From assembly GCA_963722305.1 (NCBI GenBank), contig CAVRKE010000001.1, forward strand, positions 245,549 through 309,548: 64,000 nt of DNA. Reading direction: 5' to 3'. Below are positions 4,803-64,000 of the stretch, piece by piece. Under the pieces are notes generated by a model. The model did not search any database, was not told the origin of the DNA, and saw only the letters and a list, made by a program, of their open reading frames with translations. The translations under genes and the position numbers were made by a program. This DNA is from Candidatus Levyibacteriota bacterium (lineage in GTDB: Bacteria; Patescibacteriota; Microgenomatia; Levybacterales; UBA12049). Numbering within the stretch: the stretch's first letter is position 1; each line of letters starts with the position of its first letter.

Positions 4803-4845
4803 CTTTTGAGATCATAATGCTAGTTATTGTCTGTAGAGTTATTGA

Positions 4846-5079
4846 ATGCATTTTCATACTATTCTAGATATGAAAACAACGCCGGCACGAAAACAACTTG
4901 GAGAACGGATTAGAAAGCTAAGAAAAAAGCAAGGGATCTCTCAAGAAGAACTTGGATTCAGATCGAAGCTACACAGAACATATATTGGTGCTATTGAGCG
5001 CGCAGAGCAAAATGTTTCTATTGATAACATCCATAAGATTGCCAAGGCTCTAAAAGTATCCCCAAAAGAACTTTTGTAA
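4846..5079 (+). CDS. XRE-family helix-turn-helix transcriptional regulator (Cro/C1 type)
   Basis: LGERIRKLRKKQGISQEELGFRSKLHRTYIGAIERAEQNVSIDNIHKIAKALKVSPKELL is a classic HTH_XRE. Confidence 0.75.
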   Translation: MHFHTILDMKTTPARKQLGERIRKLRKKQGISQEELGFRSKLHRTYIGAIERAEQNVSIDNIHKIAKALKVSPKELL

Positions 5080-5089
5080 AATAAAAATT

Positions 5090-5800
5090 CCGCCATCTTC
5101 CACCATCAACGAGGCTGTGTAAAGATTACTTAATCACGAAAATGCTGAAAAATGCTGAAATTTTTCGCACTTCTATGCAAAAATGTTAAGTTTTGTTAAG
5201 GTTTTCTGCATTATTTATACTTAAATAAGAGTTTGGTGACACGATAAAAAGAAGCTAAAAAGTAGTTTATTATCACTATAAAGATGGAACTATGATAAGA
5301 ATTGATAAGATTTTTCGCGCTACATACGAAAATACTAAAATTTCCTGAAATTTTTAGAGTTATCTATGCGTGAATGAAAGTTTCTTGACACGATAAAAAG
5401 AGGCTAAAGAATAGTTTCTTCCCACTATAAAAGGGAATATATTGAGTTTTATTGAGGTTTTTCATATATTTAGCCAGCAAATGCTAAGTTTTGCTAACCT
5501 TTTTGACATCTAACTGCCACAAAACTAGTTTTGTGGCACTATAAAAGAGGCTAAAGAATAGTTTCTCCTCACTATAAAAAGAAATATGCTGAGAATTGCT
5601 GATATTTTTCGTTTTACAAGCTACAAATGTTGAGGTTAGTCAAGGTTTTTCATGTATTTTAGTCAAGAAATGTTATTATTTGTTATTATTTTCCGCTATT
5701 ACCACACATAACTAGGCACAATAAAGAATTTTTCGGCACTTATAAAGAAGCTAAAATTGAGTTTTCCGCCGCTTTACGCGCGCGCGTGCGCGCGAGATTC
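5090..5800. repeat. tandem array of four degenerate ~149-bp units (core starts 5238, 5387, 5536, 5736), each with a conserved ~45-bp core GACAC(G/T)ATAAAAAGAGGCTAAAGAATAGTTTCTNCNCACTATAAAAG and an internally duplicated variable part
   Basis: Direct reading; spacing 149, 149, 200 bp; AT-rich. Confidence 0.8.
5777..5797. repeat. alternating CG tract ACGCGCGCGCGTGCGCGCGAG, palindromic and Z-DNA-prone, isolated in AT-rich DNA at the end of the repeat array
   Basis: Direct reading. Confidence 0.7.
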
Positions 5801-5850
5801 TTTGAGTAAATTTATTAAATCCTGTAAAATGTAGATAGATTGAAATGTAG

Positions 5851-6543
5851 ATGAATATGAAGCAAAAAGATTTTAGTATCAATTACTCTTTGCGAAAACT
5901 TATTCAAGATAAGTTTATTCAAAGCATGGTAGCGGATTTATATAAGCACAGAAAAGAAACAGACCCGGTAACCATCTTTCTTCCGCTTACAAATGACCGT
6001 TTTAATAAAATCGCCTCTGATCCTGACCATGAAGGCATAGAAAATTTTGAGGAGCTTTGTCTAACTTTTGATGACAGTTTATTCTTAAATGAGCTTTTCA
6101 AGTTGAGAGTTTTGTCTAAAAAAGAATGCGCAGACGAGGATTTTTCGGCGTGTGTGAAAATAATCAATCCAGAGTTTATCGAACATATTCATGCGTGGAT
6201 AAAGGACAAAAATCTCATTATCAATTACGGCATTTTTAGCCTTCACACTTTTTCAGGAGAAGCATATTGTTTGGATAACAAATATGTTTTCCATGCCGGA
6301 AAGAGATCATTTCGGGTATTTCGATCCTTTCTCGAAGAGCCAACGCATATACTTGACTATCAAACCATTTATAAAATATTTTACAAAGGAGAAAAGAACA
6401 GACCGACTTACCGAATGAGTCCTACACAAATTCACCAAATAATAGGCGATATAAGGGAAAAACTACACATGAAGGGGGAACTCTCAAAATTGTTTGTCCC
6501 ATCATCAGATCAATACATCCTAAAATCAGATTTAGGCCTTTAA
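5851..6543 (+). CDS. DNA-binding protein with C-terminal OmpR/CadC-type winged-helix domain; candidate partner of the upstream repeat array
   Basis: C-terminal RVFRSFLEEPTHILDYQTIYKIFYKGEKNRPTYRMSPTQIHQIIGDIREKL matches the Trans_reg_C pattern (ends in an LRKKL-like motif). Confidence 0.5.
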   Translation: MNMKQKDFSINYSLRKLIQDKFIQSMVADLYKHRKETDPVTIFLPLTNDRFNKIASDPDHEGIENFEELCLTFDDSLFLNELFKLRVLSKKECADEDFSACVKIINPEFIEHIHAWIKDKNLIINYGIFSLHTFSGEAYCLDNKYVFHAGKRSFRVFRSFLEEPTHILDYQTIYKIFYKGEKNRPTYRMSPTQIHQIIGDIREKLHMKGELSKLFVPSSDQYILKSDLGL

Positions 6544-6652
6544 TACAATCCATTCAATTAGGTAATCTTCAAAATACTCCCCGATAGTTCCCCACCTATG
6601 ACTAGCCCATACCAAGAGACTCCTGCTTTATTTCTTTTTAGTATTCCACTAT

Positions 6653-6904
6653 ATGGAAAATAAATTTACAACTTACGACATACTTCTCTCCTCTTTTTTG
6701 CTTACCAATGAAATCAATCTTATAGGAATAAAAGAGACTTTTCCCCGTCGTTTTATTTTTATACTTTCAGATACCGATAAGTGTGAAAAACTTTCCAAAG
6801 AATATATTAACAACGCTTCGGCTCCTGCGCGAGAACTTTTTTCCAATCGAGAAATGCTTATCAATGAAATAAATAGAAAAATGACTAATGCAGTAAGGGG
6901 ATAG
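6653..6904 (+). CDS. hypothetical protein
   Basis: 83-aa ORF; weak. Confidence 0.25.
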   Translation: MENKFTTYDILLSSFLLTNEINLIGIKETFPRRFIFILSDTDKCEKLSKEYINNASAPARELFSNREMLINEINRKMTNAVRG

Positions 6905-7146
6905 AGAAGCGTATTGAAAACGCAAGCCGAAAGGCTAAGTGGTAATCGACTGCCACAACCTACCGCAGAAGGACTGTTCGGATTGAAACAAGCGGTTTCC
7001 CGATCACACCAAACGAACAGATAAGATGCTTTGCAAGACCGTTGAAACGCGTGAGCAAAGATTAACATCAAAAACCTTCTGGTTTATCTCTCTTCTTCTA
7101 AGAAATGAGATGAGTAACAGTAGTAACTAGGGAGAGGAAAAAGAAT

Positions 7147-7311
7147 ATGGAAAATCGAAAAATCGATCAAAAAACAACAAAACAACTAGTTATAGATGCC
7201 GGGTTGCACCAAAGACTTAAGATGATGGCGGCGGAGCGCTCTATGACTATTAAAACGCTCGTGGAAGGGTGTCTAGCGGAACTTCTAGTAGTTAAAGGAG
7301 AGGATTTATGA
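7147..7311 (+). CDS. ribbon-helix-helix (CopG/Arc-like) small DNA-binding protein
   Basis: 54 aa MENRKIDQKTTKQLVIDAGLHQRLKMMAAERSMTIKTLVEGCLAELLVVKGEDL has the RHH beta-alpha-alpha pattern; not in the ORF track because it is short. Confidence 0.5.
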   Translation: MENRKIDQKTTKQLVIDAGLHQRLKMMAAERSMTIKTLVEGCLAELLVVKGEDL

Positions 7312-7469
7312 CACCGGAAGAATTTAAACAAGCAATTCAAGAATTTAAGGTCATTTACAAAGAGGTATTCGGCGTCGAATTGAATGGTGAAGAAGCAACT
7401 ATAAAAGCCCGGAGCTTACTTCAGTTGTTCGACTGCTTGACAACAGGAACAGGAAAGGGATTACAATGA
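7308..7469 (+). CDS. small hypothetical protein, translationally coupled (ATGA overlaps on both sides)
   Basis: 53 aa MTPEEFKQAIQEFKVIYKEVFGVELNGEEATIKARSLLQLFDCLTTGTGKGLQ. Confidence 0.35.
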   Translation: MTPEEFKQAIQEFKVIYKEVFGVELNGEEATIKARSLLQLFDCLTTGTGKGLQ

Positions 7470-9210
7470 AATTAGAAGAGATAGAAATGCAAAAGCATCC
7501 AATAACCAAAAACGAAAAAAAGTTTTATATTATATACTGCCGTAAATCATCTGAAGCAGAAGATAGACAAGTTGAAAGCATCAATGACCAACTTAAAGAA
7601 GCTGATAAAATAATTCTTCAAAGAAGTCTCGACGTTAAAGACAAACCGTTTACCGAATCGCGCTCAGCAAAAAAACCGGGTAGGCTAGAATTTAACCGAA
7701 TGATTGAGGAAATTGATAATAGGCATGACATTAAAGGCATTATTTGTTGGAAATTAAATAGACTTTTTAGAAATCCTGAAGATGAAGGTAAAATAAGACA
7801 ACGACTTTCAGACGGAAGAATCGAAGAAATAGTTACGCCTTCAAAAACATACCTAGAGGCTGATAGTGATTTTACAATGGCGGTAGAAGGAGCTCAAGCA
7901 CAAAGGTTTATCAGAGATTTGAAGGAAGATACTGCAAGAGGAATCAAATCAAAACTTGATAAGGGTATTGCTCCGATATTAGCTCCACCGGGTTATCGTA
8001 ATTGCCTTGAAAAAAGACAAGGGGAAAGAAACATAGAGCCTGTTCCCGATCAATTTACTTTATCAGAAACTTATTCGAGATATATCTTACCGGCAATTAC
8101 TCCGTTCAACAACTATGGTTTAAGGCAAAAGAATTGGGTATAAAAAGCAATAGGGGCAATATTATTAGCTTAACGCAACTTTATAAAATGCTGACAAACC
8201 CATTCTACACGGGCACAAGATATGTCTATGCGGACAAGCTATATACAAACGGAGTTCACAAAAGAATGTTAACCGACGAAGAATATAATCTTATACAAGA
8301 AATTCTTTCAAAGAGAACGCATCCAAGGGGCTCAATTCATATGGATTTACTAACTGGAATTATGAGATGTGGGGAATGCGATAGAACAATCACTACCGAA
8401 GTTAAAACCAAACACTATAAAAATGGCACATCTCAAACATTTGTTTATTATCGCTGCACCAAGAAATGGAAAGGTAAAAAATGCACTCAACCTTATATTC
8501 GCGCAGAATTACTTGAAGAGCAAGTAATGAAGTATCTTGATGGATTACAACTTTCTCCACGCTTTGTGGAATGGGCAATCAAATGGCTTCAAGTAATGCA
8601 CGGGAAGCAAGAAAAATTACGGGAAGCAAAATATAAAACGATAGAACAAGCATATCAAGAAGTTGTTAAAAAGATTGTTAGAGTGGTTGACTTAACCCTT
8701 TCCGGGATGTTAACAGCCGAAGAAGGCATATTAAAGAAGCAAGAATTAGAGGTAGAAAAGAAAAGATTATCTGAAGAATTAGAAATGATTGATACTCATG
8801 TTTCAGAATGGAGCAGTCTTGCTATTCAAACTTTCGACCTTGTTAAAAACATCAAGGAAAGATTTACTAGCGGGTCTATTGAACAAAGAAAAACAATACT
8901 CCGCGTTATTGGCTCGAACCTAATATTAAAAGACAAAACTATTCAAATTGAGATTCGAAAACCTTTTGAGTATATACAAAAGGTTGTAAGTCAATTAAAC
9001 GAAGATAAACGGCTCGAACCTATCGATTTGCCTGATATAACAAGCCAAGAAGCCTTTTTGCACTCTCCAAATATAATAGTGGGTGGAAGACGGGTGCTGC
9101 CCCCGCTACTTCCTGGACCACAACCAGGCGCTCTACTGTTGAGCTACATCCACCGAGTGAAACGAGGTAGTACTATACCGAAGGTACAGTACACCGCACC
9201 TCAATTATAA
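7466..9210 (+). CDS. large serine recombinase (integrase/resolvase type) with an apparent +1 frameshift near 8048-8060; the C-terminal tail reads through an antisense tRNA-like sequence
   Basis: Catalytic YIIYCRKSS...DRQ; resolvase-domain GRLEFNRMIEEI; recombinase domain resumes in the other frame (IRNLFEIYLTGNYSVQQLWFKAKELGIKSNRG...NPFYTG); zinc ribbon CGECDRT...YYRCTKKWKGKKC; coiled coil. Confidence 0.85.
9082..9154 (-). tRNA. degenerate tRNA-His(GUG)-like sequence, possibly an att-site remnant or pseudo-tRNA
   Basis: G-1 plus GUGGAUG acceptor pairs with CUUCCAC and C73 (one U-U mismatch); D-arm GCUC/GAGC; anticodon stem CCUGG/CCAGG with loop UUGUGGU; T-stem GCGGG/CCCGU but a non-canonical T-loop GGCAGCA and a short D-loop. 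Confidence 0.35.
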
Positions 9211-19332: not shown

Positions 19333-19629
19333 ATGGATCAAAAAATACGCAGAATTCATCCACCGGCATTTAAAGCCAGAGTTGCTCTGGAGGCAATTAA
19401 GGAACAAAAAACAATTGCGGAGCTGTCAAGTATGTACGGTGTACATTCAACCCAAATAACGAAATGGAAACGCCGGGCGTTGGAGATTCTCTCGCAAGGG
19501 TTTTCAGAACATCTTATTCAACGGAAACGGGATGACCGTGAGCTGGTACAGGAATTGTATCGGCAAATAGGAAGATTAAAAGTCGAAGTAGACTTTCTTA
19601 AAAAAAAGATGGGCATCTTCGACGAGTAG
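19333..19629 (+). CDS. IS3-family transposase OrfA (HTH plus leucine zipper)
   Basis: AFKARVALEAIKEQKTIAELSSMYGVHSTQITKWKRR is an IS3 OrfA HTH; ends after an A8G run. Confidence 0.85.
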   Translation: MDQKIRRIHPPAFKARVALEAIKEQKTIAELSSMYGVHSTQITKWKRRALEILSQGFSEHLIQRKRDDRELVQELYRQIGRLKVEVDFLKKKMGIFDE

Positions 19630-20470
19630 GGATATCCTTACTCCCGGAGAAATTGCTCTGCACATTAACAAAACAGAAAGCGTATTACCAAAGAGTATAC
19701 GGGCTGATCTTCTGGATATTTCCAGATCAAGTTTGTACTATCAGCCAAGACCGGTTAAACCCGAGGCACTCATTTTAATGAACAGAATTGATGAGGTATA
19801 TACTGCCCACCCTTTTTATGGTTCAAGACGTATGGCAAAAGAGGTTGGTGTTAACAGAAAACAGGCACAACGCCTGATGCGTGAAATGGGCTATGAGGCA
19901 TTGTATCCGAAGCCTAATTTGAGTAAACCCGATAAACAACACATGTTCTATCCGTATTTACTCAAAGGAGTAGTTGCAGGATATCCAAATCATATCTGGG
20001 GCACAGATATTACGTATATTCGGATGAAACATGGGTTTGTATATTTAACTGCCTTTCTTGATTGGTTTACCAGATTTGTTGTTTCCTGGAAGCTCTCAAT
20101 TACCCTTGAAACAGACTTTTGTTTTGATGCTGCAACTGAAGCAATTGAGAAATTCGGAAGACCAACCATTATTAATGAAGATCAGGGATCACAAAATACC
20201 GATCATCTGATGACAGATCTCTGGGAAAATCACAATGTCAAAATCAGCATGGACTCACGGGGACGGGCACTGGACAATATCTTCACCGAGAGGTTATGGA
20301 GGAGTGTTAAATATGAAGAGGTATACTTAAAAGAATACGCTACTGTTTTGGAAGCAAAAGAAAACATTGAAAACTATTTTTACTTTTACAATTATGAAAG
20401 AAAACACCAATCGCTTAATTACAGAACACCGGCTGAAATATATTTTGGAAAGGAGGAAAACTTAGTCTAA
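19592..20470 (+). CDS. IS3-family transposase OrfB (DDE integrase core); reading frame is +1, not the canonical -1, relative to OrfA
   Basis: LDISRSSLYYQPR..., GTDITYIRMKHGFVYLTAFLDWFTRFVVSWKL, NEDQGSQNT (DDE). Confidence 0.85.
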   Translation, partial: TFLKKRWASSTSRDILTPGEIALHINKTESVLPKSIRADLLDISRSSLYYQPRPVKPEALILMNRIDEVYTAHPFYGSRRMAKEVGVNRKQAQRLMREMGYEALYPKPNLSKPDKQHMFYPYLLKGVVAGYPNHIWGTDITYIRMKHGFVYLTAFLDWFTRFVVSWKLSITLETDFCFDAATEAIEKFGRPTIINEDQGSQNTDHLMTDLWENHNVKISMDSRGRALDNIFTERLWRSVKYEEVYLKEYATVLEAKENIENYFYFYNYERKHQSLNYRTPAEIYFGKEENLV

Positions 20471-21578
20471 GTTTAGCCGTTTTACTGTGTTGACAATGGG
20501 GTCCACCTTAAAGTATCGATAAGTGGTTAAATGCTCTTCCGTACAAAAAGATGCTGCTCTCTTGTGAGGCAACTGCCGAATACCACAGGGTACTTGCACT
20601 TTTGGCTCTTTCTTCTAAAATACCATTGAGGTTATTAAATCCCATTGTGACTAAGCAATATACCAAAGCAACTGTTCGAAAGAGAAAAACTGACCCTCAA
20701 GACGCATTAACCATTGCTAAGCTGGCTCTTGCCGGAGAAGGAAGGCTGATAAGTACCCAAACTTTTCACATTGCCAAAACCCATGAGAGAACCGCCATAA
20801 AGCTAACACACATGAAACAGCGTCTTTTACTAATACAACAGCACGTACAAGAGGTAGATCCGGATGATACAGCTTCTTTTGAGGAGTTGCAGGTCTGTAT
20901 TGATACCATAGAACAGTCAATCAAAGCATTTAGGAAGAAAGCAGAAGAAGAGGTTGATTCAAAACTTGTTAAACTGCTTTGCTCTATACCGGGAGTGGGA
21001 GAAACAATAGCAACGGTACTTCTTGCGGAAATCGGAGATATTAATCAGTTCAAATCAGATAAAGCCCTCGTTGCTTATGCGGGATTGGATCCAAAGGTCA
21101 AACAATCAGGAGGAAGATTACACCATAATACCCATTTAACTAAAAGAGGCTCTCCTTACCTTAGACAGATGCTCTATACAGGAGCTTCTATTGCACAACG
21201 GCATGATAAGGAACTTAAGGCGTATTACGAGAAGAAGAGAGCTGAGGGAAAGAGGTACAAAGAAGCAACCATTGCGGTATCAAGAAAACTGCTCAATAGA
21301 GTATATGCAGTTTTAAAAAGGCAGACACCTTATATACCTGGATGAGATACATCGGTAACACTTTGAGACCAGGGGTCTTGACAAAAGATTCCTGGTCTCT
21401 AACGTCCCTCTTTCGCCAAAGGCTTCAGAAGGACAGACGTCTCCATTCGGCTTCGCTTTAGATTTCTCCTTCGATACTCTCAGGATTTCACTTCGTTCAA
21501 AATTCGCTCAATACATGAATAAATTCAGTATCTCTATGAATCTCGACATTCCTCGATGCGGATAAATATTTAGAAAAA

Positions 21579-26413: not shown

Positions 26414-27586
26414 AGACCGTTGCATTTTGGTCACCTGAAAGAGGGTATTTAGATTGTTCTAACAAACAAAAGCAGTAATTCCACTCAGTGAGAATTGTCT
26501 TTGTTGATGATATACTCCTTGAGTGAAAAAAAACAGCATCTTACAGATGTCCCCACTGCGAAAGCCAAAATACTATCCGTAAAGGAGTAAGAAGAGGAAA
26601 AATTAAATATGTTTGTAGAAAGTGTAATAAATGGTTTCAGATAAATAGGATAAAGAAAAACTCCACTGGAAAATTGCTGTTTGCTCATCTGACCGGAGTA
26701 TCTTTCCGCTCCTTAGGAGAAACCTACCAAATTGACCCATCTACTGCCTACAGACGCTGCCTTAAGGAATTAGGAGAGCTCCCTCATTTAGCAGACGTAA
26801 CAAGAAAATACTGCAGTAAGTTCTGTGGGATATTAGTGGTTGATGGAAAATATATTAAAGTGAAGGGATACGAAAGAAAGATTCCGGTTTTGTATGGGAT
26901 TGATTACCTTACTCATGATATCCCAACATATATTTTCTCCCAATCTGAAAGCTACCAAACTTGCCGGACGTTTTTCAACTCCTTACGATTATTGAATTAT
27001 CCTTTACAGGCCATTGTTTCTGATGACAATGCCAATATCTATGATGCCTGTGTGTCAGTATATCCTAAAGTGCTTACTCAACTTTGCCATAATCACTACA
27101 AGGAGAATATCAGGACAACTCTTGGAGTCAGAACTGATACAACATATCTTCCTTTTATGCAGAGAATAGAAGACTTGTTCTCTCACAAAAGAGCGGAAGA
27201 TGAATTCCTCACATTAGCCGCAAAACTGTATAATACCTACAAACATGATTCATTACTTTCTGCGATCCTTTTAGACATGCAAAGGAGATTACCGCAATTA
27301 AACACCTACATGAATAACAGAACTATTCCCACCACTACTAATCTGATTGAAAGTTACAACTCGCACTTAGAAGCCAGAGTAAAGCCGCTGAAAGGTTTTG
27401 AATCATTTAAACACGCTGATATGTGGTTAAATGCATATTTCTTAAGACGAAGACTGAAAGTCTTTACCGATTGTACCGCTAAATTCAGAATGTTAAATGG
27501 AACATCTTCACTTCAACAGACCATGAAAAACCCTGAGGAAATTGGAGAACTCTTGAGGCTATTCAGGTGACCGTTTTTGCAACGGT
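26414..27586 (+). mobile_element. IS1/IS1595-like insertion sequence (about 1.17 kb) with imperfect terminal inverted repeats sharing ACCGTTGCA and TCACCTG blocks (left GACCGTTGCATTTTGGTCACCTG, right CAGGTGACCGTTTTTGCAACGGT)
   Basis: Zinc-finger DDE transposase flanked by the inverted repeats; the left IR abuts the Crp start codon. Confidence 0.55.
26507..27570 (+). CDS. IS1/IS1595-like transposase with N-terminal zinc ribbon; needs a -1 frameshift at a GAA AAA AAA C site (A8 run 26526..26533) to join start ATG 26507 to the zinc-finger frame
   Basis: CPHCESQNTIRKGVRRGKIKYVCRKCNKWF zinc finger resembles IS1 InsA; DDE-like VVDGKYIKV, SDDNANIYDA and CHNHYKENI. Confidence 0.6.
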
Positions 27587-46804: not shown

Positions 46805-47167
46805 CTATTTTTCGGGGATGAATTTGATCGATAGGGAATTGACGCAGTGCCGCACATTTTTGGCCGTGAACCCTTCTCCTAGGAACACATGACCCAAATG
46901 ACCACCACACTTGGCACAAACTATTTCAGTTCTTACTCCGTCGGGGTCGGGAATTGTTTTGACCGAATCTTTTACGAAATCGTCAAAAGCCGGCCAGCCG
47001 CAGCCGGCGTCGAATTTGGCTTTTGAGGAATATAAAGGATTATTGCACTGCCGGCAAACATACATCCCCTTTTGGTAAAACTCATCGTATTCACCACTAA
47101 ACGGCGCTTCGGTTTGCTTTCCGATAATTACCGCTTGCTCTTCGTCTGTTAATTTATTCAGCTTCAT
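46805..47167 (-). CDS. msrB: peptide-methionine (R)-S-oxide reductase
   Basis: CxxC...RTEIVCAKCGGHLGHVF is the MsrB signature. Confidence 0.85.
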   Translation of the reverse strand: MKLNKLTDEEQAVIIGKQTEAPFSGEYDEFYQKGMYVCRQCNNPLYSSKAKFDAGCGWPAFDDFVKDSVKTIPDPDGVRTEIVCAKCGGHLGHVFLGEGFTAKNVRHCVNSLSIKFIPEK

Positions 47168-47704
47168 TTTTGTATTCTTCCTTCATATCTTTTCCATATT
47201 TTTGCAGTAATTTCTGAATTTTTGGGTTAATCACAAAAGTGCAATAGGAATCATCCTTATTTTTGTCGTAATAATCTTTGTGATAATGCTCTGCCGGATA
47301 GAAATTAGTGAAGGGAACTATTTCGGTAACGATTTTATCTTCGTAAACCTTTTCTTTCTCCAATGCGGTTTTTGAATCCTGGGCCATTTCTTTTTGTTTT
47401 GGGTTGTGATAAAAAATTGCCGAGCGGTATTGCGTTCCAACATCGTTTCCCTGACGGTTTAATGTTGTCGGGTTATGCGTGTGCCAAAAAACATCGAGAA
47501 TCTTTGCGTAAGGAATAATTTGCGGGTCAAATTCAATCTGAATTGCTTCGGCGTGACCTGTATCTCCCGAAAAGAATTGTTCGTAACTTGGGTTTTGAAC
47601 GCTACCACCGGAATAGCCTGATATTACCAACTGAACTCCCTTTAATCTTTTAAAATTGCCTCTGTACACCAGAAGCATCCTCCGGCCAATGTTGCAGTTT
47701 CCAT
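47154..47704 (-). CDS. msrA: peptide-methionine (S)-S-oxide reductase with an apparent 1-nt frameshift near 47647-47660 separating the GGCFWC active site from the rest
   Basis: Upstream frame METATLAGGCFWCTEA then stop; downstream frame FKRLKGVQLVISGYSGGSVQNPSYEQFFSGDTGHAEAIQIEFDP is the MsrA core. Confidence 0.8.
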
Positions 47705-54443: not shown

Positions 54444-54517
54444 GGAGTTGTAGCTCAGTTGGTTAGAGCGTCGCATTGACATTGCGAAGGTCACAGGTTC
54501 GAATCCTGTCAGCTCCA
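54444..54517 (+). tRNA. tRNA-Val(GAC)
   Basis: Acceptor GGAGUUG/CAGCUCC, anticodon stem UCGCA/UGCGA with loop UUGACAU, T-arm ACAGG-UUCGAAU-CCUGU. Confidence 0.85.
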
Positions 54518-54746
54518 CATATTTTACCCTTACGGAGTTTACCTCAAATCAAAGCTAAATTAGTTCCAGACAATACTTTAACGTCTTGTATTTTTAGCCT
54601 CACAGCCATCAAGGAATCGAACTAACATATTTAATACGGAGTTTTGACTATAAAGTTTTAATTAGGTCTATCACTTTTATTATATCAGTCTCCGTTTTTG
54701 TTTTACAGAATTGTAAAAGATTTTAAAATCGCTAAAATTTTAAGAT

Positions 54747-54932
54747 ATGGAAGATACTGATATTGAAGAAGCAAGAGAAATTTTAGGAGATACAGCAAAA
54801 CAATTGACCGACGAGCAGTTAAAAGATATCTGTGTTGAAATACAATTTCTTGTTGAATCATGGCTTGACGAATATGAAAGGTCTGTATTTAATGGCAAAA
54901 CGCTACGAGAATTATTAGGAGAATCTGTATGA
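54747..54932 (+). CDS. small acidic protein upstream of the integrase (possible excisionase or accessory factor)
   Basis: 61 aa; ATGA overlap with the recombinase gene. Confidence 0.35.
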   Translation: MEDTDIEEAREILGDTAKQLTDEQLKDICVEIQFLVESWLDEYERSVFNGKTLRELLGESV

Positions 54933-56371
54933 AAAGCATTCCAAAGCAAGCCTTACTGTACTTAAGGGTATCTACCGAAGAACAAGTTGATAATTTTTCT
55001 TTAAAAACCCAAGAAGACATCTGCCGCAAAGAGGCTGAAAGACGAGGTTATATAATTGAAAAAATATTCAAAGAAGAAGGGAAATCAGCCAAAAATATTA
55101 GCGGCAGGCCTACGCTCGCAAAATTACTTGACTACTGTCGTAAAAATCAAAAAAGGATTGGTGCTTTAATTGTTTACAGGCTAGACCGGCTCTCAAGGCA
55201 AACTGGGGATTATCTTACTATTCGTAATAAACTAAACAATTACGGTATCGCCTTAATTTCAACCGCTGAGCCAACGGGAACATCGCCAACCGAAAAACTA
55301 ATTGAAACAATCCTGGCTGGATTCGCACAACTGGAAAACGATATTCGAGGGGAAAGATCAAGAAATGGAATGCGGACAAGATTCATGTCTGGACTTCCGA
55401 ATGGTGTTCCACCTCCGGGCTATCTAATGCTCAACGGCTATGTTGTAAAAGATATAAATTGTTTCGATAAGGTTAGAAAAGCTTGGGATATCATGGCAAC
55501 AGGAACAAAATGCTTTAAAGAAATGGCGGAAATTCTAAACAACTTTAAATTAAGAAACGGTAAGACCGGTAAACGCTATAAATTTACTCCTAAAAACATC
55601 TATCGTATCTTTAAAAATAAACATTATATGGGAGTTATAGTATCCGAAACGTATCAATTGGAAGTACAAGCCCAACATGTTCCAATGATTACTAAAGAAC
55701 AATTCTTAAAAGTACAAGAAATAATGAACGGGAACAATAAAAATAAGATAGATCTTGTACGAAAAAATCAAAATAATGAAGATTTTCCTTTAAGAAGATT
55801 TATTAAGTGTGTTAAATGCAAACAAGCTTTTACCGGCAGCTGGAGTAGTGGAAGATGCAAAAAATATGCTTATTATCATTGCAATAATAAATGCAAAAAC
55901 GCCAGCGTACCCAGAAATCTGATTCACAGTTATTTCTCTAATCTTCTTAAAGCCAGACCAGCTACGACAGAATACATTGTGTTTTATCTGTTTCTTTTGG
56001 AAAACGTATTTCAAAAGAGATTTAGCAAAATTAAGCAAAAACAGATACGAACAGCATCGCAAATTAGTAAACTTCGAAATTTTCGCCAATCGTTAATAGA
56101 TAAAAACCTTGCGGGCATTTATTCTGATAAAGATTTCAAAGAACAATTTGACCTTATTGAAGACCAATTACGCAATATGGCACTTTTTAGTAACCAAACC
56201 TCGCTGGAACAGTACACAAAAGAAGCTACTAGAGAATATATCAAAAAGAAAATAATCAACCTACCAAATTCATATGAGTCTTTTGATATAAAACAGAAAC
56301 GCACAGCAATATCTCTTTTATTCCCTAAGGGATTTGTCTGGGAATATCCAGGACTTACCGTTGTACCTTAA
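54929..56371 (+). CDS. large serine recombinase (integrase), intact
   Basis: ALLYLRVSTEEQ catalytic Ser, resolvase-domain LDRLSRQ, recombinase domain, zinc ribbon CVKCKQAF...YYHCNNKCKN, C-terminal coiled coil. Confidence 0.85.
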   Translation: MKSIPKQALLYLRVSTEEQVDNFSLKTQEDICRKEAERRGYIIEKIFKEEGKSAKNISGRPTLAKLLDYCRKNQKRIGALIVYRLDRLSRQTGDYLTIRNKLNNYGIALISTAEPTGTSPTEKLIETILAGFAQLENDIRGERSRNGMRTRFMSGLPNGVPPPGYLMLNGYVVKDINCFDKVRKAWDIMATGTKCFKEMAEILNNFKLRNGKTGKRYKFTPKNIYRIFKNKHYMGVIVSETYQLEVQAQHVPMITKEQFLKVQEIMNGNNKNKIDLVRKNQNNEDFPLRRFIKCVKCKQAFTGSWSSGRCKKYAYYHCNNKCKNASVPRNLIHSYFSNLLKARPATTEYIVFYLFLLENVFQKRFSKIKQKQIRTASQISKLRNFRQSLIDKNLAGIYSDKDFKEQFDLIEDQLRNMALFSNQTSLEQYTKEATREYIKKKIINLPNSYESFDIKQKRTAISLLFPKGFVWEYPGLTVVP

Positions 56372-56384
56372 AAGCAACTTTAAA

Positions 56385-56609
56385 CTAATCAAGAATGGGC
56401 AGTCCTTTTAAAAATCTGGCCAAATCATATTCGTAAACAAGAGGTTCTCCTTTATATACTCCAACCGTTTGACCAGAGATCCAACTCAAGAATTCTGCAA
56501 ACTTTTCTGGCTCAAGCACCTCTTTAATGTTACTTATCAGATATCCACTGTATGCATTTTTTACCTTAATTAACTTTAACTTTTGTTTATTTAGTCGTTT
56601 TTTGTTCAT
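56385..56609 (-). CDS. small hypothetical protein overlapping the 3' end of fic
   Basis: 74 aa; 4-nt overlap. Confidence 0.4.
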   Translation of the reverse strand: MNKKRLNKQKLKLIKVKNAYSGYLISNIKEVLEPEKFAEFLSWISGQTVGVYKGEPLVYEYDLARFLKGLPILD

Positions 56610-57640
56610 ATTTCTTTCAAGACATAATAAGTTGCTTTTCCCTTACCTTTTCTTTCAATTAAACCTAGTATGAGTAATTTCTTAAAATCTTGAGTTCTCG
56701 TTGCTTTAGCGCGACTGACAAGCTTTGCATAATCTCGATCCGCAATAAATCCTGTTTCTCGTATGTATTTAATGATTTTCAAGTGTTGTGTTTTTAAATG
56801 AGTTTCCGGACTAACAGCGATTTTAGGCAGTAATTTTTCTACTCTAAGCAATTCATCAATAATTCCCTCCGTAAAATATTCAAGCCAGTTGCTAAAATCT
56901 ATCTTCTCAACAAGTTCATAATAATTACCAAATTCTCCAACTGTTTGAAAGTATTTTGTAACATTTTGGTTATAGTAGTTTTCAAAACTAAAGAGGTTAA
57001 ATGTATTAAGCCCCATCGCAGCCAGTAGCGCTTTCGTAACGAGTCTCGTTGTTCTTCCGTTGCCATCCATAAAGGGGTGGATAATAACCATTTGTTTATG
57101 AAAGATACCAGCCAGAATAAGAGAATCTATCCTATTCTCATTTTCGTTAATAAATTGAACTAAATCTTCCATCATCGATTCCACGTCTTTTACATCCGGT
57201 GGAAGATAAACTGGTTGTCCGATTCTTGGATCATTTACAACTACCGGTTTCCCCCTAAGTTGTCCTGACTCAAATTCTGGCAATAATCCTTCCGTAACCT
57301 GCTTCTGAGTTCCTAAAATTAAATTAAGAGATATTTTTATATTTCCTTTACCAAGTAACTTATCTAAACTTTGTAACGCTTGATTATAATTTAATACTTC
57401 TTTTTCGCTATCCCGTATATGAGTTGGTTTTAACTTAAGAATTTTTTTGACTTCAGTTAGAGGGAGAGGATTACCTTCAATACTTGTTGAAGCGTAAGAA
57501 GAAACCTCACGCGCGGTTCTTTCTAATTCAAGCAAGATTACATTTGGGAATCTCCTGTTATTAAGCTCGTGGACTAGGTAATTTATTCTCTTTATATTTG
57601 CTAAGAGGTTATTAGTAATAGTGTATTTAGGTTTAAACAT
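56606..57640 (-). CDS. Fic-family protein (AMPylator/adenylyltransferase fold)
   Basis: HPFMDGNGRTTRL is the canonical Fic motif. Confidence 0.85.
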   Translation of the reverse strand: MFKPKYTITNNLLANIKRINYLVHELNNRRFPNVILLELERTAREVSSYASTSIEGNPLPLTEVKKILKLKPTHIRDSEKEVLNYNQALQSLDKLLGKGNIKISLNLILGTQKQVTEGLLPEFESGQLRGKPVVVNDPRIGQPVYLPPDVKDVESMMEDLVQFINENENRIDSLILAGIFHKQMVIIHPFMDGNGRTTRLVTKALLAAMGLNTFNLFSFENYYNQNVTKYFQTVGEFGNYYELVEKIDFSNWLEYFTEGIIDELLRVEKLLPKIAVSPETHLKTQHLKIIKYIRETGFIADRDYAKLVSRAKATRTQDFKKLLILGLIERKGKGKATYYVLKEI

Positions 57641-57673
57641 ATAGTCGAATTATAGTCGATTTATAGTCGATTT
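57641..57673. repeat. three tandem 11-bp direct repeats ATAGTCGA(A/T)TT directly abutting the fic start codon
   Basis: Direct reading: ATAGTCGAATT ATAGTCGATTT ATAGTCGATTT. Confidence 0.85.
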
Positions 57674-57857
57674 GCAATAGGGGAACTAAAAATTTCCCAT
57701 CGTAAAGAGTAGGATTAAACACTTAAGTCCTCCTCGCTACTTTCAATTATGACTACTTTTCCGTTATAATAAGTAAAGCCGAGCTGGGTTAGCTTGTGAG
57801 ACATAGTAATCAGGGAATCAAAGATTCTTTTCCACCTAACCACGCTAGGGCCCACAC

Positions 57858-58721
57858 TTATAAAAAACTTAGCCAAATCGCGGAAGCTATCATAATAATT
57901 GTCGCAGAAAAACGCACAAGGTAAACTCTTGTGGAATGTGTTTCCAAAAACCTAGCATATTTTTTAGACAATAAATAAGTGAATACTATTGAAAATGGTA
58001 ATGAAATTATTACACTACTTAAGGCTAGATTATGCCCATAAGCTAAGGTGGAAGTTACAGAGTATATAAAATCTGCCAACCCCAAAAATATAAATGGAAA
58101 TAATTTTTTTAAATTAAGCTTCTCCTGACTATTTTTTATAAATCTCAAGGTTGGTAAAAGAATAATTAAAGTTAAAAAATCCTGCCACAGAATAGTAGTT
58201 GCATAACCGTTTCTGGCCACCGAAATATTTGTAAATAATCCTTTAAATGCCAAAACCAACATACAGACGAGAGCAATAAAAATGTATTTTTGAAAAAAAG
58301 CTCTAAGCTTTAACTTTTCATCATAAGCAGAAAAAATGCTAAAAAAAACAATCACTGCTATTAACAGTATTCCAAGCGCATTAACTTTTTCATGAAGAAT
58401 TACAACTCCTAAAATAACCGCAAATACAGTTCGCAGACTAAATAACGGACTCAATGCTGTAATGTCCATTTTGAAAAGTGAAAGTGTATAGAAAATATAA
58501 AATAAGGCAGAACAAAATGACAACATTAATATTGATATCCAATCTTGCGGCAAGCCTCCACCCTTGATGAGAGCAAAAACTACAATCAGAGGAATTCCGG
58601 AGGCAGTCCAAAGTACATTAAACAACCAAGGATTTTTAATCAAAGACTTACTGGATGCTTTGATGATGAGAGGCTCGATTCCCGAAGTAATGCTGGCAAT
58701 CCAGGCAAATAGTATACCCAT
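57858..58721 (-). CDS. EamA/DMT-family transporter
   Basis: About 10 TM helices in two EamA-like halves; start set at MGILFAW to avoid overlap with the HD gene. Confidence 0.7.
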   Translation of the reverse strand: MGILFAWIASITSGIEPLIIKASSKSLIKNPWLFNVLWTASGIPLIVVFALIKGGGLPQDWISILMLSFCSALFYIFYTLSLFKMDITALSPLFSLRTVFAVILGVVILHEKVNALGILLIAVIVFFSIFSAYDEKLKLRAFFQKYIFIALVCMLVLAFKGLFTNISVARNGYATTILWQDFLTLIILLPTLRFIKNSQEKLNLKKLFPFIFLGLADFIYSVTSTLAYGHNLALSSVIISLPFSIVFTYLLSKKYARFLETHSTRVYLVRFSATIIMIASAIWLSFL

Positions 58722-58760
58722 TAGTTGATTATAACAAATGAATAGTTCTACAATAATAAT

Positions 58761-59330
58761 ATGACAAGGGACGAAGCATACCAAATCCTGACCGGTTTGG
58801 TTAAAAATAAAAACCTGCTTAAGCATCACTTGGCGTGTGAGGCGGCGATGAAAGCCATCTATAAAAAAATCTCGCCAAAACCAACTCCGGAGGAAGAAAC
58901 AGCCTGGGGACTGGTCGGATTGTTACACGATGCGGATTACGAACTATGCAAAAATCATCCGGAAAAACATACCTTGGTTTTGGAGGAAAAAATCGGTTAC
59001 AAACTGGACCCGAAACTAATGTACGCTATTAAATCCCACAACTGGGCGAATAACGGTTTTGAACCAAAAAGCTATTTGGACTGGGCGATTTATTGTTGCG
59101 ACGAATTAACCGGTTTGATTGTGGCGGCGGCGCTGGTTCATCCGGAAAAGAAACTGGCACCACTTACGGTTGAGTTTGTGATGAACAGGTTTAATTCTCC
59201 ATCCTTTGCCAAAGGCGCAAATCGAGCGCAGATTATGCTCTGCGAAAAGGAACTGAGAATTCCGCTAAATGAATTTGTCGGCCTGGTGCTTAACTCGATG
59301 CAAGAAATTGCCCAAAGCCTAGAACTGTAA
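58761..59330 (+). CDS. HD-domain phosphohydrolase
   Basis: H...LVGLLHDADYE HD motif. Confidence 0.75.
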   Translation: MTRDEAYQILTGLVKNKNLLKHHLACEAAMKAIYKKISPKPTPEEETAWGLVGLLHDADYELCKNHPEKHTLVLEEKIGYKLDPKLMYAIKSHNWANNGFEPKSYLDWAIYCCDELTGLIVAAALVHPEKKLAPLTVEFVMNRFNSPSFAKGANRAQIMLCEKELRIPLNEFVGLVLNSMQEIAQSLEL

Positions 59331-59380
59331 ATTGACCATTGACACTACTATAAAACTTAAACTATTCTTTTTATAGGACC

Positions 59381-59605
59381 ATGGAAAGATACGACGAGAC
59401 TAAAGAATCAAGGGCAAAAATTTTCATCAACAATTTTCTTGGCGGAATTGCCTGGGCGTGGGGCGCAATGGTCGGAGTAGCTTTTGTTGTCGCTATTCTG
59501 ACGCTAGTTGTTAAAAACATTAATTTTATTCCGTTTTTCGGTAATTTTGTCGCAGGAGTTATCCAGTTTATCATCCAAAAAAATCCGAATTTATTCGGGA
59601 GATGA
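59381..59605 (+). CDS. small membrane protein
   Basis: 74 aa, two TM helices. Confidence 0.4.
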   Translation: MERYDETKESRAKIFINNFLGGIAWAWGAMVGVAFVVAILTLVVKNINFIPFFGNFVAGVIQFIIQKNPNLFGR

Positions 59606-59636
59606 AATTAAAGCTTGTACCTGATAAAATAACCTC

Positions 59637-61023
59637 ATGGATAAAAATTTAAAAGACCACAAACAATTAGGGCAAGAACTGGAGTTATTTTTTTCTCATG
59701 ATTATGCCCCCGGGACGCCCTTTTGGCTGCCAAAGGGCATGGTAATTTTTAAGGAGCTGGAGAAATATATCCGCGAACTAACCGAAAAAGCCGGCTACGT
59801 TGAAACTTCAACTCCGATAATGGTCAGGTCGCAATTGTTTAAAGAATCCGGGCACTGGGTTAAGTTCGGAGAGCATAACATGTACAATTTACAACTTTGG
59901 GAGGAAGAAGAAGTATTCGATCTTGCGGAAATAATGAAAAAAGAAGAACCCAAGATAATAGATGAAATCAAAAAAAGACCAGAACCAAAATTTCCATTTA
60001 ACTACATAATTGAATATCAAAATCAAAGAACAGAAATTCCCATTTTGAGTTATGAAGAAACAAAAGGCATACAGTTTATGCTACCTGTTAATTACACTTT
60101 AAAGCCGATGAATTGCCCGGAGTCAACCATTCTTTACCGCTTTAGACCCAGAACCTATAAGGAATTACCGCTAAGACTGGCGGAAATCGGCAGGTTACAC
60201 CGCAGGGAAAAATCTGGGGAAGTGAATGGGTTGTTAAGAGTTAGGCAATTAACGATGGATGATGCCCATATTTACGCCCGCGAGAGTCAGATTTTCGACG
60301 AGGTTTCCAACATTTTAGATATGATGGTGACTTTTTATAAAAATTTTCAGTTTGAATATGAATTTAGATTTGCCACCAGACCGGAAACCAGAGCCGGGAC
60401 CGATGAAAATGTGGGACAAAGCCGAAAAAGACTTGGAAGAAGTATTAAAGAAAAAAGGCATCAAAGCCGGCGACAAAAAAGGCGACGGCGCATTTTACGG
60501 CCCAAAAATCGACCTGCACATTAAAGATGCCCTGGGGCGGGAATGGCAGCTGGCCACCGTTCAACTGGATTTTCATATGCCTACTGCTTTTGATCTAAAA
60601 TACGTTAACGAAAAAGGCGAGTTTGAAAAACCGGTCATGATTCACCGGGCAATTTTTGGCAGCTTTGAAAGGTTTATCGCTATTTTAACCGAGCATTTTC
60701 AGGGCGCTTTTCCATTATGGCTGTCGCCGGTACAGATTGCGCTTTTGCCCATAACTGACAAGCAGAATGCATATACAAATGAAGTGGCGGAGAAATTAAG
60801 AGCGGATGGCCTTCGAGTTGAGGTGGATTCCCGTAACGAAAGACTGCAAGCCAAAATTAGAGACGCCACTTTACAAAAAGTCCCATATTTAGGTATAATA
60901 GGCAAACAGGAAGTGGAGTCCAAATCCATTTCTTTAAGGTTAAGAGACGGGAAAGATTTAGGCAAAGCAACAATCGAAAATCTAACCCAAAGGTTAAAAC
61001 AAGAAATTGATAAAAAGATATAA
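59637..61023 (+). CDS. thrS: threonyl-tRNA synthetase, catalytic core plus anticodon-binding domain only, with an apparent frameshift at an A-run near 60405-60410 (ORFs 59637..60524 and 60352..61023)
   Basis: Class II motifs: FWLPKG, RLAEIGRLHRRE, ATRPE then MWDKAEKDLEE in the other frame, GAFYGPKIDLHIKDALGREWQLATVQLDF, HRAIFGSFERFIAIL. Confidence 0.9.
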
Positions 61024-61642
61024 ACGACACGAGAATACCAGAAGGTTTTACAGAGTTAATGAACGTATCTATGCTCCGACTCTTCGCGTATTAGGAAGCG
61101 ACGGAAAGCAGATAGGCATACTGGCAAAGTTCGAGGCTCTGGACAAAGCCAGAAGTCAAGAACTTGATTTAGTAGAAATAGCGCCGATGGCCAAACCGCC
61201 GGTCGCAAAAATAATTGACTTCAAGAAATTCTTGTATCAGGAAGAAAAGAAAAAACGCGAAGAGAAGAAAAAGGCGAAAACAACCGAGACGAAAGAAATC
61301 AGACTCGGGCCTTTTATGAGCGATAACGACCTGGGGGTTATGATAAGAAGGGCCAAAGAGTTTTTGGAAGCAGGAGACAAAGTCAGGTTGGTAGTTTCAT
61401 TTTCGGGCAGGCAAATCACTCATCCCGAATTTGGACACCGGATTTTGGATAAAGTCTTGGAAAGCTTATCCGAAATTTCTAAACTAGACAGGGAAAGACA
61501 TTTGGAAGGGAAGAAATTAATCGCTTTAATTTCGCCCGACAAGCATCGTCCTGAGCATACAGTCGAAGGAAAAGGCGCCGCAACAACAAACGGCGAAGAA
61601 ATACAAAATGGCAAAGAAGAAAATCAAGAAATCAATCGCTAA
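61007..61642 (+). CDS. infC: translation initiation factor IF-3; true start likely internal or non-canonical
   Basis: RVLGSDGKQIGILAKFEALDKARSQELDLVEIAPMAKPPVAKIIDFKKFLY aligns with IF3 N and C domains. Confidence 0.85.
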   Translation: MIKRYKRHENTRRFYRVNERIYAPTLRVLGSDGKQIGILAKFEALDKARSQELDLVEIAPMAKPPVAKIIDFKKFLYQEEKKKREEKKKAKTTETKEIRLGPFMSDNDLGVMIRRAKEFLEAGDKVRLVVSFSGRQITHPEFGHRILDKVLESLSEISKLDRERHLEGKKLIALISPDKHRPEHTVEGKGAATTNGEEIQNGKEENQEINR

Positions 61643-61805
61643 AAGATTTAAGGTTACCAGAACCGGTAAGGTTTTATTTAGTCATCAATACGGCAGTCAT
61701 AAAAAACTGACCAAATCAAGGGCCAGAGTAAGAAGACAAAAGGAAATCGGAATTTTGAAAGGAACATTCGCGAAAAAAATTAAGCAAGCACTGGGTAATC
61801 AATAA
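61608..61805 (+). CDS. rpmI: 50S ribosomal protein L35
   Basis: MAKKKIKKSIAKRFKVTRTGKV... Confidence 0.9.
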   Translation: MAKKKIKKSIAKRFKVTRTGKVLFSHQYGSHKKLTKSRARVRRQKEIGILKGTFAKKIKQALGNQ

Positions 61806-61940
61806 TGCGACAAAGAAATATTAATTTTAGGGAAACACGTTCGGAAAGGGCAGGCGAGAGTTCGTACAAAAACTTTCACCGAACAATTATCAAAAATTTA
61901 AAAATTCATTTAAAATATTCATTAGATAAAATTAAAAAAT

Positions 61941-62291
61941 ATGGCCAGAATTAAACGAGGAACCGTTTCAAGAAGAAAACATAATAAATTGGTAAGCCTG
62001 ACAAAAGGATACCGAGGAACAAAAAGTAGGCTGGTTAGAAAACAGCACGAGACGGTTTTGCATGCCGGCGCTTACGCTTATCATGGCAGAAAACTGAAAA
62101 AAAGAGACATCCGGTCTTTATGGATTACCCGGATTGCCGAAGCTGCCAAAAAAGAAGGGGTATCGTACAGCAAATTAATGGACCAACTTAAGAAAGCCAA
62201 TGTGGAACTTGACAGGAAGATTTTAAGCGAGTTGGTTTTAAATGATCCGGAAGCTTTTGCCCAGCTGATAAAAACCACTAAATCAAATTAA
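61941..62291 (+). CDS. rplT: 50S ribosomal protein L20
   Basis: MARIKRGTVSRRKHNKLVSLTKGYRG... Confidence 0.9.
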   Translation: MARIKRGTVSRRKHNKLVSLTKGYRGTKSRLVRKQHETVLHAGAYAYHGRKLKKRDIRSLWITRIAEAAKKEGVSYSKLMDQLKKANVELDRKILSELVLNDPEAFAQLIKTTKSN

Positions 62292-62328
62292 CCATTTCGG
62301 CTTCGCCTCAATCTGCTAAAATGTTGCT

Positions 62329-62784
62329 ATGACAATTATTCCATTTACCAAAATAGGTTATGAGAATTTAAAAAAAGAGTTGGAAAGTGAAATTGCCAAA
62401 CGACCCGCGGCAGTTGCAGTTTTAAAACGCGGGCGAGAAATGGGCGACCTTTCGGAAAACGGATTATACAAAGCGGCAAAGATGGAATTATCTGATATTG
62501 ACAGACAAATTCGGCATCTTCAGAATTTAGTTTTGTATGGAAAAGTTTTTGAACCGGCAAACAATAATACTGTTCAACTCGGGCACACTGTAACAGTTGA
62601 AACTGAAAGCGGAAAAAAAACTTTTCAGATTGTCGGCGAGTGGGAAGCAAATCCAAAGGAAAACAAAATTTCGCTCAAGTCTCCAATCGGACATAATCTA
62701 ATGGGACGAAAAGTCGGAGACAAAATATCAATACGAACACCAAATGGCCCCACTGAATATAGAATTATCAGTATTGCCAAGTAA
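62329..62784 (+). CDS. greA: transcription elongation factor GreA
   Basis: DLSENGLYKAAK and ISLKSPIGHNLMGRKVGD signatures. Confidence 0.85.
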   Translation: MTIIPFTKIGYENLKKELESEIAKRPAAVAVLKRGREMGDLSENGLYKAAKMELSDIDRQIRHLQNLVLYGKVFEPANNNTVQLGHTVTVETESGKKTFQIVGEWEANPKENKISLKSPIGHNLMGRKVGDKISIRTPNGPTEYRIISIAK

Positions 62785-62886
62785 TATTACCTATGTTATG
62801 ATCATTGACATGAAGAATTTGACAGCAGTTTATTATTACTTTACATCCTCCAATGCGGGGTAGGTTTTCGTGAAGTAAAAAGACCA

Positions 62887-62908
62887 CCCCGCCAAGGCGG
62901 GGTTTTTT
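62887..62908 (+). terminator. rho-independent terminator after greA
   Basis: CCCCGCC-AA-GGCGGGG plus a T6 run. Confidence 0.7.
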
Positions 62909-62931
62909 AGTGGTTAAAGGATGTGGTTTTT

Positions 62932-63129
62932 ATGACAATCGCAGAAAAATGTTTACAACAAAGAATTGGTAATTGTGCCGGCTGTCCCGTCTTAGGAATT
63001 GTTTTAGACAAAAGAGGACCAATGCCGATAGCAGAAGAACGAACTTTAATTTCAAAAATTAGCAGGGAGTTGTGTCCGAACGGAACAGTTATGCAAGTTC
63101 CCGCAAAACCGGAAAGACCTCTTATGTAA
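62932..63129 (+). CDS. small Cys-containing hypothetical protein between greA and pheS
   Basis: 65 aa with CAGCP and CPNG motifs; weak. Confidence 0.3.
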   Translation: MTIAEKCLQQRIGNCAGCPVLGIVLDKRGPMPIAEERTLISKISRELCPNGTVMQVPAKPERPLM

Positions 63130-63164
63130 TGAAAAAACATTGAGGTTATGCTATTCTTAAAGCT

Positions 63165-64000
63165 ATGGAAGAGGAATTAATCGGGATTAAAAATACGGCG
63201 TTATCTTTTATTCTGGAAGCGGAAGATTTGGAAAGCCTGGAAGAAACCAAACTGCAGTTTTTGGGCAGAAGCGGCAAGCTAACTTTGGCAATGAAGGAAA
63301 TTACCAAAGTGCCGGTGGAAAAACGGAAAGAATTTGGGTTGTTGGCGAACGAAGTTAAACAGACCATTGAAGATGCCTTGGAAAGTCAAAAGTCAAAATT
63401 GAAAACTCAAAAGCTTGGAAGAGTAATTGCCAAAATTGATGTCACCAATCCGGGCATTAGACCAAGCTTAGGGCATTTGCATTTGGTAACTCAGGCGATT
63501 GAAGAAATAACCGGCATTTTTGCCAAAATCGGTTTTGAAAGAGTGAGGTACCCGGAAGTAGAATGGGATTGGTATGCATTTGAAGCTTTGAATTTTCCGG
63601 AAAATCACCCGGCCAGAGATGACTGGGAAACTTTTTTTATTAAAGGCGAACCTGATCCCAAAAAAGGCCCGCTGGTTTTGACTCCCCATACTTCATCCGG
63701 TCAAATCCGAGAAATGGAGCGAAAACAAAAACCGCCAATTCGGATGTTAAATATCGCCAAGTGCTACAGAAGGCAATCGGATGTTTCGCACGTGCCGATG
63801 TTCCACCAGTTTGAAGGCTTGGTGGTTGATGAAAACATTTCGATTGTCCATTTAAAAGGAACTCTGGATTATTTTGTCAAATCATTTTTTGGAGAAAGCA
63901 GAAAATCGAGAATCAGACCCTACCATTTTCAGTTTACCGAACCGTCATTTGAAGTTGATGTCAGCTGCGGCGTTTGTGGAGGGCGCGGGTGCAAACTGTG
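63165..64000 (+). CDS. pheS: phenylalanyl-tRNA synthetase alpha subunit (3' end runs past the window)
   Basis: FPENHPARD, LTPHTSSGQIR, KCYRRQSDVSHVPMFHQFEG, FQFTEPSFEVDVSCGVCGGRGCKL; the ORF track missed it because it is truncated at the window end. Confidence 0.85.
   Translation, partial: MEEELIGIKNTALSFILEAEDLESLEETKLQFLGRSGKLTLAMKEITKVPVEKRKEFGLLANEVKQTIEDALESQKSKLKTQKLGRVIAKIDVTNPGIRPSLGHLHLVTQAIEEITGIFAKIGFERVRYPEVEWDWYAFEALNFPENHPARDDWETFFIKGEPDPKKGPLVLTPHTSSGQIREMERKQKPPIRMLNIAKCYRRQSDVSHVPMFHQFEGLVVDENISIVHLKGTLDYFVKSFFGESRKSRIRPYHFQFTEPSFEVDVSCGVCGGRGCKL

Follow-up and report, generated by a model that had tools for sequence, protein, structure and literature searches.

The gene for threonyl-tRNA synthetase (thrS), located at 59637-61023 on the + strand of the 64,000-nt stretch of DNA analysed here (the window), is split by one extra base in the deposited sequence but is intact in a second assembly that, by sequence comparison, is of the same strain. 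Since thrS is intact there, its interruption is a problem of sequence quality and not new biology. Four other genes of the window are also broken, and every one of the breaks is of a single-base nature. The explanation that we regard as highly likely for the whole set is that the thrS break is a spurious-G consensus error, that the four other breaks are contractions of short homopolymers, and that recoding is not involved.

An extra G splits thrS

In the window, thrS is represented by two overlapping + strand open reading frames, 59637-60524 (295 aa) and 60352-61023. Three-frame translation shows that the former encodes ...ATRPETRAGTDE and that the latter, in the +1 frame, encodes MWDKAEKDLEE...GAFYGPKID. 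In silico removal of the G at 60411 generates a 461-aa ORF, reading ...GTDENWDKAEK... across the junction. The joined protein carries a catalytic core and an anticodon-binding domain, with one match to tRNA-synt_2b (PF00587, 142 bits) and one to HGTP_anticodon (PF03129, 76 bits). It aligns to the ThrRS chain 8wij_B, which is near-identical to E. coli chains, e.g. 1evk, with E = 3.5e-110 and ungapped across the junction (TRPETRAGTDEMWDKAE in the window, TRPEKRIGSDEMWDRAE in 8wij_B). As in class IIa ThrRS, a class II core is combined with the HGTP anticodon domain, colinear with solved ThrRS structures. The ORFs, the Pfam matches and the ungapped alignment thus bear out the original prediction that thrS is split by a frameshift and that its motifs continue in the second frame. 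The sequence GATGAAAATG, to which the break had been assigned, was also found, but at 60402-60411 rather than 60401-60410; its A-run occupies 60406-60409.

The domain organization of this ThrRS deserves a separate remark. It is devoid of the N-terminal TGS and editing domains and, compared with E. coli, carries an insertion of ~60 aa in the catalytic core (residues about 79-151). This insertion is missing from the closest relatives (407 aa), and a scattered subset of ThrRS proteins (460-474 aa) has an insertion of different sequence at the equivalent place.

A second assembly of the locus was available from Logan, which provides per-run de Bruijn-graph assemblies of SRA data (k=31, singleton k-mers discarded, Minia3 simplification, Prodigal gene calls; PMC12424806). 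The contigs were obtained through exact-product look-ups of intact neighbouring genes, and all come from run ERR11594402. Identity with the window is 100% for four of them, namely L001 (window 61234-63953), L003 (45837-47809), L006 (9125-12211) and L088 (25232-26442). L002, aligned with window 56921-60897, shows one difference in 3,977 columns, and L004, aligned with window 1613-8047, shows 2 SNPs, one G5/G4 indel and a 3-nt tail. Judged from these six contigs and the 19,403 nt compared, the ERR11594402 contigs are of the same strain as the window.

The only difference between L002 and the window is the G at 60411, which is missing from L002. At this point L002 aligns as AAAAT-TGGG, so that AAAATGTGGG in the window corresponds to AAAATTGGG in the Logan contig. 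Its thrS reads GAT GAA AAT TGG (DENW) in a single open frame, and the gene call starts at the same ATG as in the window and extends over 420 codons to the contig end. When G60411 is omitted, the window thrS equals L002 at all 1260 shared nucleotides. Hence, the lesion is a G inserted between two T residues, with no change in run length. A miscounted A-run at 60406-60409 was considered as the lesion and was ruled out, as L002 differs only by G60411. The break was therefore correctly recognized in the original prediction, but its attribution to homopolymer length does not hold, since the additional base lies outside any run. The real thrS would read GAT GAA AAT TGG GAC (DENW) and would encode an ordinary ThrRS of 461 aa.

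The related genomes, whose comparison had been proposed as a check, gave a concordant picture. We collected 80 thrS loci from GTDB species representatives, all of them Microgenomates-type Patescibacteria and, judging from contig names (NODE_, k141_), mostly SPAdes or MEGAHIT assemblies. The thrS motifs flanking the junction share one open frame in 80/80 of these genomes, and the best 120 ThrRS protein matches listed are all full-length (403-482 aa). The residue preceding the conserved Trp is variable in the family (DENW, DAMW, DEDW, DEMW). The closest relative found, P0002 (81% identity), has TDENWDKAEK. The motif could be located in 55 of the GTDB relatives; 15 of them have DENW, several with the 15-mer of L002, GATGAAAATTGGGAC, and 13 have DEMW (GATGAAATGTGGGAC). 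Since the window 16-mer is one indel away from both the DENW and the DEMW alleles, G60411 could possibly have arisen as a hybrid consensus of co-occurring AAT TGG and ATG TGG alleles. Exact DNA pattern searches for the same strain gave no match in GTDB genome contigs, in JGI metagenome contigs (thrS and msrA patterns) or in IMG/VR (recombinase pattern), and no record was returned when the thrS fragments, ORF 632-892, P0121 and the 3' fragment of the methyltransferase gene were looked up.

The frameshifted thrS could also be a true population variant, the Logan contig representing a co-occurring intact allele. Indeed, at least two haplotypes of another region of the window coexist, as L004 and the window differ there by 2 SNPs, a 3-nt indel and a G5/G4 run, and the deposited consensus did choose the frameshifted form. 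On the other hand, ThrRS is essential, one copy was seen, and the structure alignment implies that its halves would be nonfunctional apart; such a null allele could not form the majority of a viable population. Furthermore, the 3,976 flanking nucleotides are identical, with no sign of a distinct strain. We consider a natural thrS variant improbable and retain the consensus error as the explanation of this break.

Contractions in msrA and in a strain-variable island

The msrA gene (47154-47704, - strand) is split by a one-nucleotide deletion. A short ORF, METATLAGGCFWCTEAILKD followed by a stop, starts at ATG 47704, and the 174-aa remainder continues in the -1 frame. A break near 47650 had been predicted; it was located more precisely at the coding-strand T4 run at 47652-47655. 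A single ORF encoding CFWCTEAIFKRLKGV is present in each of the seven msrA relatives whose sequence was read (80-84% identical), and all further msrA matches listed are of full length (171-242 aa). Since the AIFKRLKG of the relatives requires ATT TTT AAA AGA, and hence T5, the T-run of the window is one base short. Of the five breaks, the Logan contigs cover those of thrS and msrA. In contrast to thrS, the msrA break recurs in the Logan data, as the T4A4 sequence is identical in L003 within its 1,973 nt. It cannot, therefore, be dismissed as an error of this assembler. Either a genuine inactivating deletion or an error shared at the read level would account for it. The original preference for assembly error over recoding is thus upheld for thrS, with its intact L002 copy and its single ORF in 80/80 relatives, and does not hold as stated for msrA.

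How these observations should be read depends on the nature of run ERR11594402. If it is a short-read or HiFi run, the thrS error is proven and msrA is a true pseudogene. If it consists of the window's own long reads, Logan constitutes an independent assembler and consensus that restores thrS, and not independent data. With reads common to both assemblies, shared systematic errors, e.g. at msrA, are possible.

Programmed recoding is another reading on which msrA bears, as the break creates a U UUA AAA heptamer in phase for -1 frameshifting. If recoding were pervasive, it would act as a +1 shift at GAA A AUG in thrS and as a -1 shift at U UUA AAA in msrA. The latter site is a canonical X XXY YYZ in the zero frame, a -1 slip on it gives the conserved ...AILKRLKGV..., and an A-run separates orfA from orfB in an IS3-family element of the window. 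However, any one-nucleotide deletion in T5A4 would generate the same heptamer. The same strain has an intact thrS allele (L002), thrS is unsplit in 80/80 relatives, and AIFKRLKG is found in all seven msrA relatives read. The GAA A AUG site of thrS matches no known +1 motif and lacks an in-frame stop. The five sites have no common motif, and they require shifts in both directions. A downstream stimulatory RNA structure was sought in 88-89 nt compared with shuffled sequences, and none was detected at msrA (z = +0.62) or thrS (z = -0.14). Programmed frameshifting is consequently rejected for thrS, given the intact allele and the unsplit relatives, and is unsupported for msrA; as a pervasive mechanism it appears extremely improbable. 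It is similarly very unlikely, though slightly less so, that the msrA deletion is real and that some full-length MsrA would be produced by -1 slippage, which would make msrA a recent, unconserved frameshift-dependent gene.

The three remaining breaks, in the DUF3892 gene, the methyltransferase and the recombinase, account for 3/5 of the window frameshifts and lie together at its left end. Homology with L005, a contig from a related strain (98.8% identity), extends only rightward from 9080. L087 (ENA contig ERZ25039480 contig_113136, 10.6 kb), which is 98% identical to window 1-9081, ends at 9081. These two limits indicate that the left end of the window, up to about 9080, belongs to an island that varies between strains. 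This island, of at least 10.6 kb, comprises an EcoO109I-like restriction enzyme (2125-3087), the methyltransferase, an HTH protein, the DUF3892 gene and the serine recombinase. L087 is error-rich and of a different haplotype than the window, and since the SNP alleles of L004 match L087 and not the window, at least two island haplotypes coexist.

The DUF3892 gene (278-570, + strand) is split into ORFs 236-403 and 400-570 of the same strand. Its break was predicted at about 400; the break is real, but it is situated at a C2 run, 345-346. L087 has C3 at this position and an intact 97-aa gene (P0241, 96% identical), and the repaired 97-aa protein of the window matches PF13031 over positions 1-71 of 71. 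The m5C DNA methyltransferase (894-2128, - strand) is interrupted at a coding-strand T3 run (plus-strand A3) at 1586-1588, within the interval 1553-1600 initially proposed. After repair, it reads ...LGYSIPSTSLTALFYSVPQRRER... and forms a 411-aa protein with one match to PF00145 (positions 2-322 of 324, 208 bits). L087 has four bases in this run, and its methyltransferase is still fragmented despite the longer allele. A break at 1607-1621 was excluded, since this segment holds an in-frame 3-nt polymorphism (1610-1612) common to the L004 tail and L087.

The large serine recombinase (7466-9210, + strand) is split between its Resolvase and its Recombinase plus Zn-ribbon domains. The frame switch, expected near 8050, was confirmed and narrowed to 8045-8064, a stretch that contains the runs C3 (8045-8047), T3 (8054-8056) and T3 (8059-8061). 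L087 equals the window across this stretch, and no intact recombinase allele was seen. The lesion is probably a C4 to C3 contraction, in which case a C4 allele, deduced here and not observed, would restore the frame. L004 ends right after the C3 run at 8045-8047, and its other end coincides with the in-frame 3-nt polymorphism, about 22 nt away from where the methyltransferase breaks. These end points suggest read-level heterogeneity near both breaks. In the favoured explanation, each of the three island breaks is located at or beside such a heterogeneous position.

The island displays one further length difference, in a hypothetical gene (5851-6543). At 6474-6478 the window has G5 and L004 has G4, while L087 reads GGGGT, leading to a stop; the three versions result in three different C-termini.

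The breaks of msrA and of the accessory genes could nevertheless be real slippage pseudogenes at short homopolymers, thrS being the only error. The commonest natural frameshifts are slippage deletions in homopolymers, the msrA T4A4 recurs in L003, which shows no difference from the window in 1,973 nt, and L087 carries the window's sequence at the recombinase site. Besides, three of the four breaks sit in an island missing from L005, where gene decay is plausible. Against these points, at least one false indel, that of thrS, is demonstrable in the same assembly, and L087 has the longer allele at the DUF3892 site, where the gene is intact, and at the methyltransferase site. The positions of the two L004 ends, in the recombinase stretch and close to the site where the methyltransferase breaks, suggest heterogeneous reads, and sister assemblies of the same submission batch are biased towards deletions. 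On balance, we consider genuine decay of these four genes a serious possibility, somewhat short of an even chance.

Indels and homopolymers across the assembly

The four breaks other than thrS are one-nucleotide contractions: C3 to C2 (DUF3892), T4 to T3 (methyltransferase), T5 to T4 (msrA) and, probably, C4 to C3 (recombinase). The affected runs would thus measure 3-5 nt when intact, and those at the DUF3892, methyltransferase and msrA sites are C2, T3 and T4 as assembled. In each of the four genes, a one-base repair gives a single full-length Pfam match. The association of these other breaks with short homopolymers, noticed from the outset, is therefore well founded. Runs of 3 or more include 26% of the window bases, and the location of 4/4 deletions in short runs is more than would be expected by chance (about 0.005, from this base share). 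This association is compatible with replication slippage as well as with noisy long reads, which are biased towards deletions.

On the other hand, the idea that homopolymers are systematically miscalled was not substantiated. Over the 19,403 nt compared, the window and the Logan contigs differ by two indels (G60411 and 6474-6478), SNPs at 1665 and 6616, and the 3-nt tail; all of these except the thrS indel fall in the island. A count of homopolymer lengths had been suggested, and all the runs of 7-8 nt covered by the Logan contigs (27/27) agree with the window. Given that the thrS lesion is not a run-length change and that the long runs are concordant, the errors do not follow a systematic pattern and do not cluster in long homopolymers. 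The run-length spectrum of the window also equals that of short-read relatives. The lack of any run above 8 nt was considered as a sign of global contraction and was discarded, since the short-read relatives share this cut-off; per 64 kb, they contain 12.7 A8/T8 and 0.74 A9/T9 and none longer. In 519 kb of related Microgenomates DNA (L007-L086), A8/T8 runs outnumber A9/T9 runs about 17-fold, with the same cut-off as in the window, which looks like a lineage-wide avoidance of long A/T runs.

The frameshifts are present in the deposited sequence itself, since the gene calls of the 608,320-bp source contig, available from NCBI and ENA, include the msrA and DUF3892 fragments. The sister ENA contigs L005 and L087 (ERZ25039473 and ERZ25039480, adjacent assembly accessions) have Flye-style names and are noisy and deletion-biased, the window being longer in 17/20 and 61/74 indel events, respectively. 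These features and, as a further indirect sign, the single-contig source suggest that the window comes from a long-read project, and a long-read consensus would be the probable source of the errors. The source genome would then keep a handful of residual one-nucleotide indels in one 608-kb Patescibacteria (Microgenomates/Levyibacteriota-like) contig, each of which would surface as a split gene because about 90% of the sequence is coding. Beyond the five genes and the IS elements, no further split genes were found among adjacent same-strand ORF pairs of the window.

Two of the window's transposases are situated at A8 runs. The IS3-family element (19333-20470) has its A8 at 19600-19607, and its orfB (rve) lies in the +1 frame relative to orfA, which is not the canonical -1 arrangement; a -1 slip on A AAA AAG misses the rve frame. 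The canonical arrangement would result from A9 or A6, and A7 would fuse the two ORFs in frame, so that this A8 may be another one-nucleotide run-length problem. The second transposase (26507-27570, A8 at 26526-26533) consists of an N-terminal zinc ribbon and a Mutator-family domain (PF00872). The zinc-ribbon ORF is not in the frame of its only upstream ATG (26507, MIYSLSEKK), and A9 would join the two. A one-nucleotide contraction is possible at this site, which lies beyond the Logan coverage (L088 ends at 26442).

Other mobile elements are found in the window. An IS110-family transposase (20551-21345) abuts the IS3 element, and about 45 positions are missing from the start of its DEDD domain; this transposase was probably truncated by the IS3 insertion. 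Another integrated element is probably represented by the region 54444-57649, where an intact second large serine recombinase (54929-56371) and, further on, a Fic-domain protein (56606-57640) immediately follow tRNA-Val(gac).

Annotation and comparison with known systems

The relevance of these results is limited to annotation hygiene; nothing here is new biology. In the deposited genome, thrS should be annotated as intact, and reads should be checked before the split DUF3892, methyltransferase, recombinase and msrA genes are entered as pseudogenes. Their status affects metabolic and gene-loss inferences for a reduced 608-kb genome of the candidate phyla radiation. Furthermore, deposited metagenome-assembled genomes can be screened for single-base errors by an independent comparison with per-run Logan contigs.

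Known cases of programmed ribosomal frameshifting include the +1 shift of prfB and the -1 shifts of dnaX and IS3-family elements at A AAA AAG. The window resembles them in having overlapping ORFs that can be joined by a one-nucleotide shift and, in msrA, a U UUA AAA site. However, its splits are conserved in no relative and have no stimulatory structure, the +1 site of thrS has neither a stop nor a hungry codon, and the same strain has thrS in an unshifted form.

The contractions in the DUF3892, methyltransferase and recombinase genes are similar to slipped-strand pseudogenes in mobile-element cargo, being located in a variable island. On present data, these island breaks are indistinguishable from sequencing error, and in the related haplotype L087 two of the three runs, those of DUF3892 and the methyltransferase, are present in the longer form.

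Residual homopolymer indels are a known problem of nanopore assemblies (PMC9262707), and single-base indels that fragment genes in long-read consensus have been diagnosed by truncated-ORF tests (PMC9262707, PMC12007338). The window departs from this pattern in that the base inserted in thrS does not lie in a homopolymer, its runs of 7-8 nt are concordant with the second assembly, and the msrA break recurs there. It conforms to the pattern in that single-base indels split conserved genes, one of them essential, 4/5 breaks are one-nucleotide homopolymer deletions, the sister assemblies are deletion-biased, and a second assembly of reads restores thrS.
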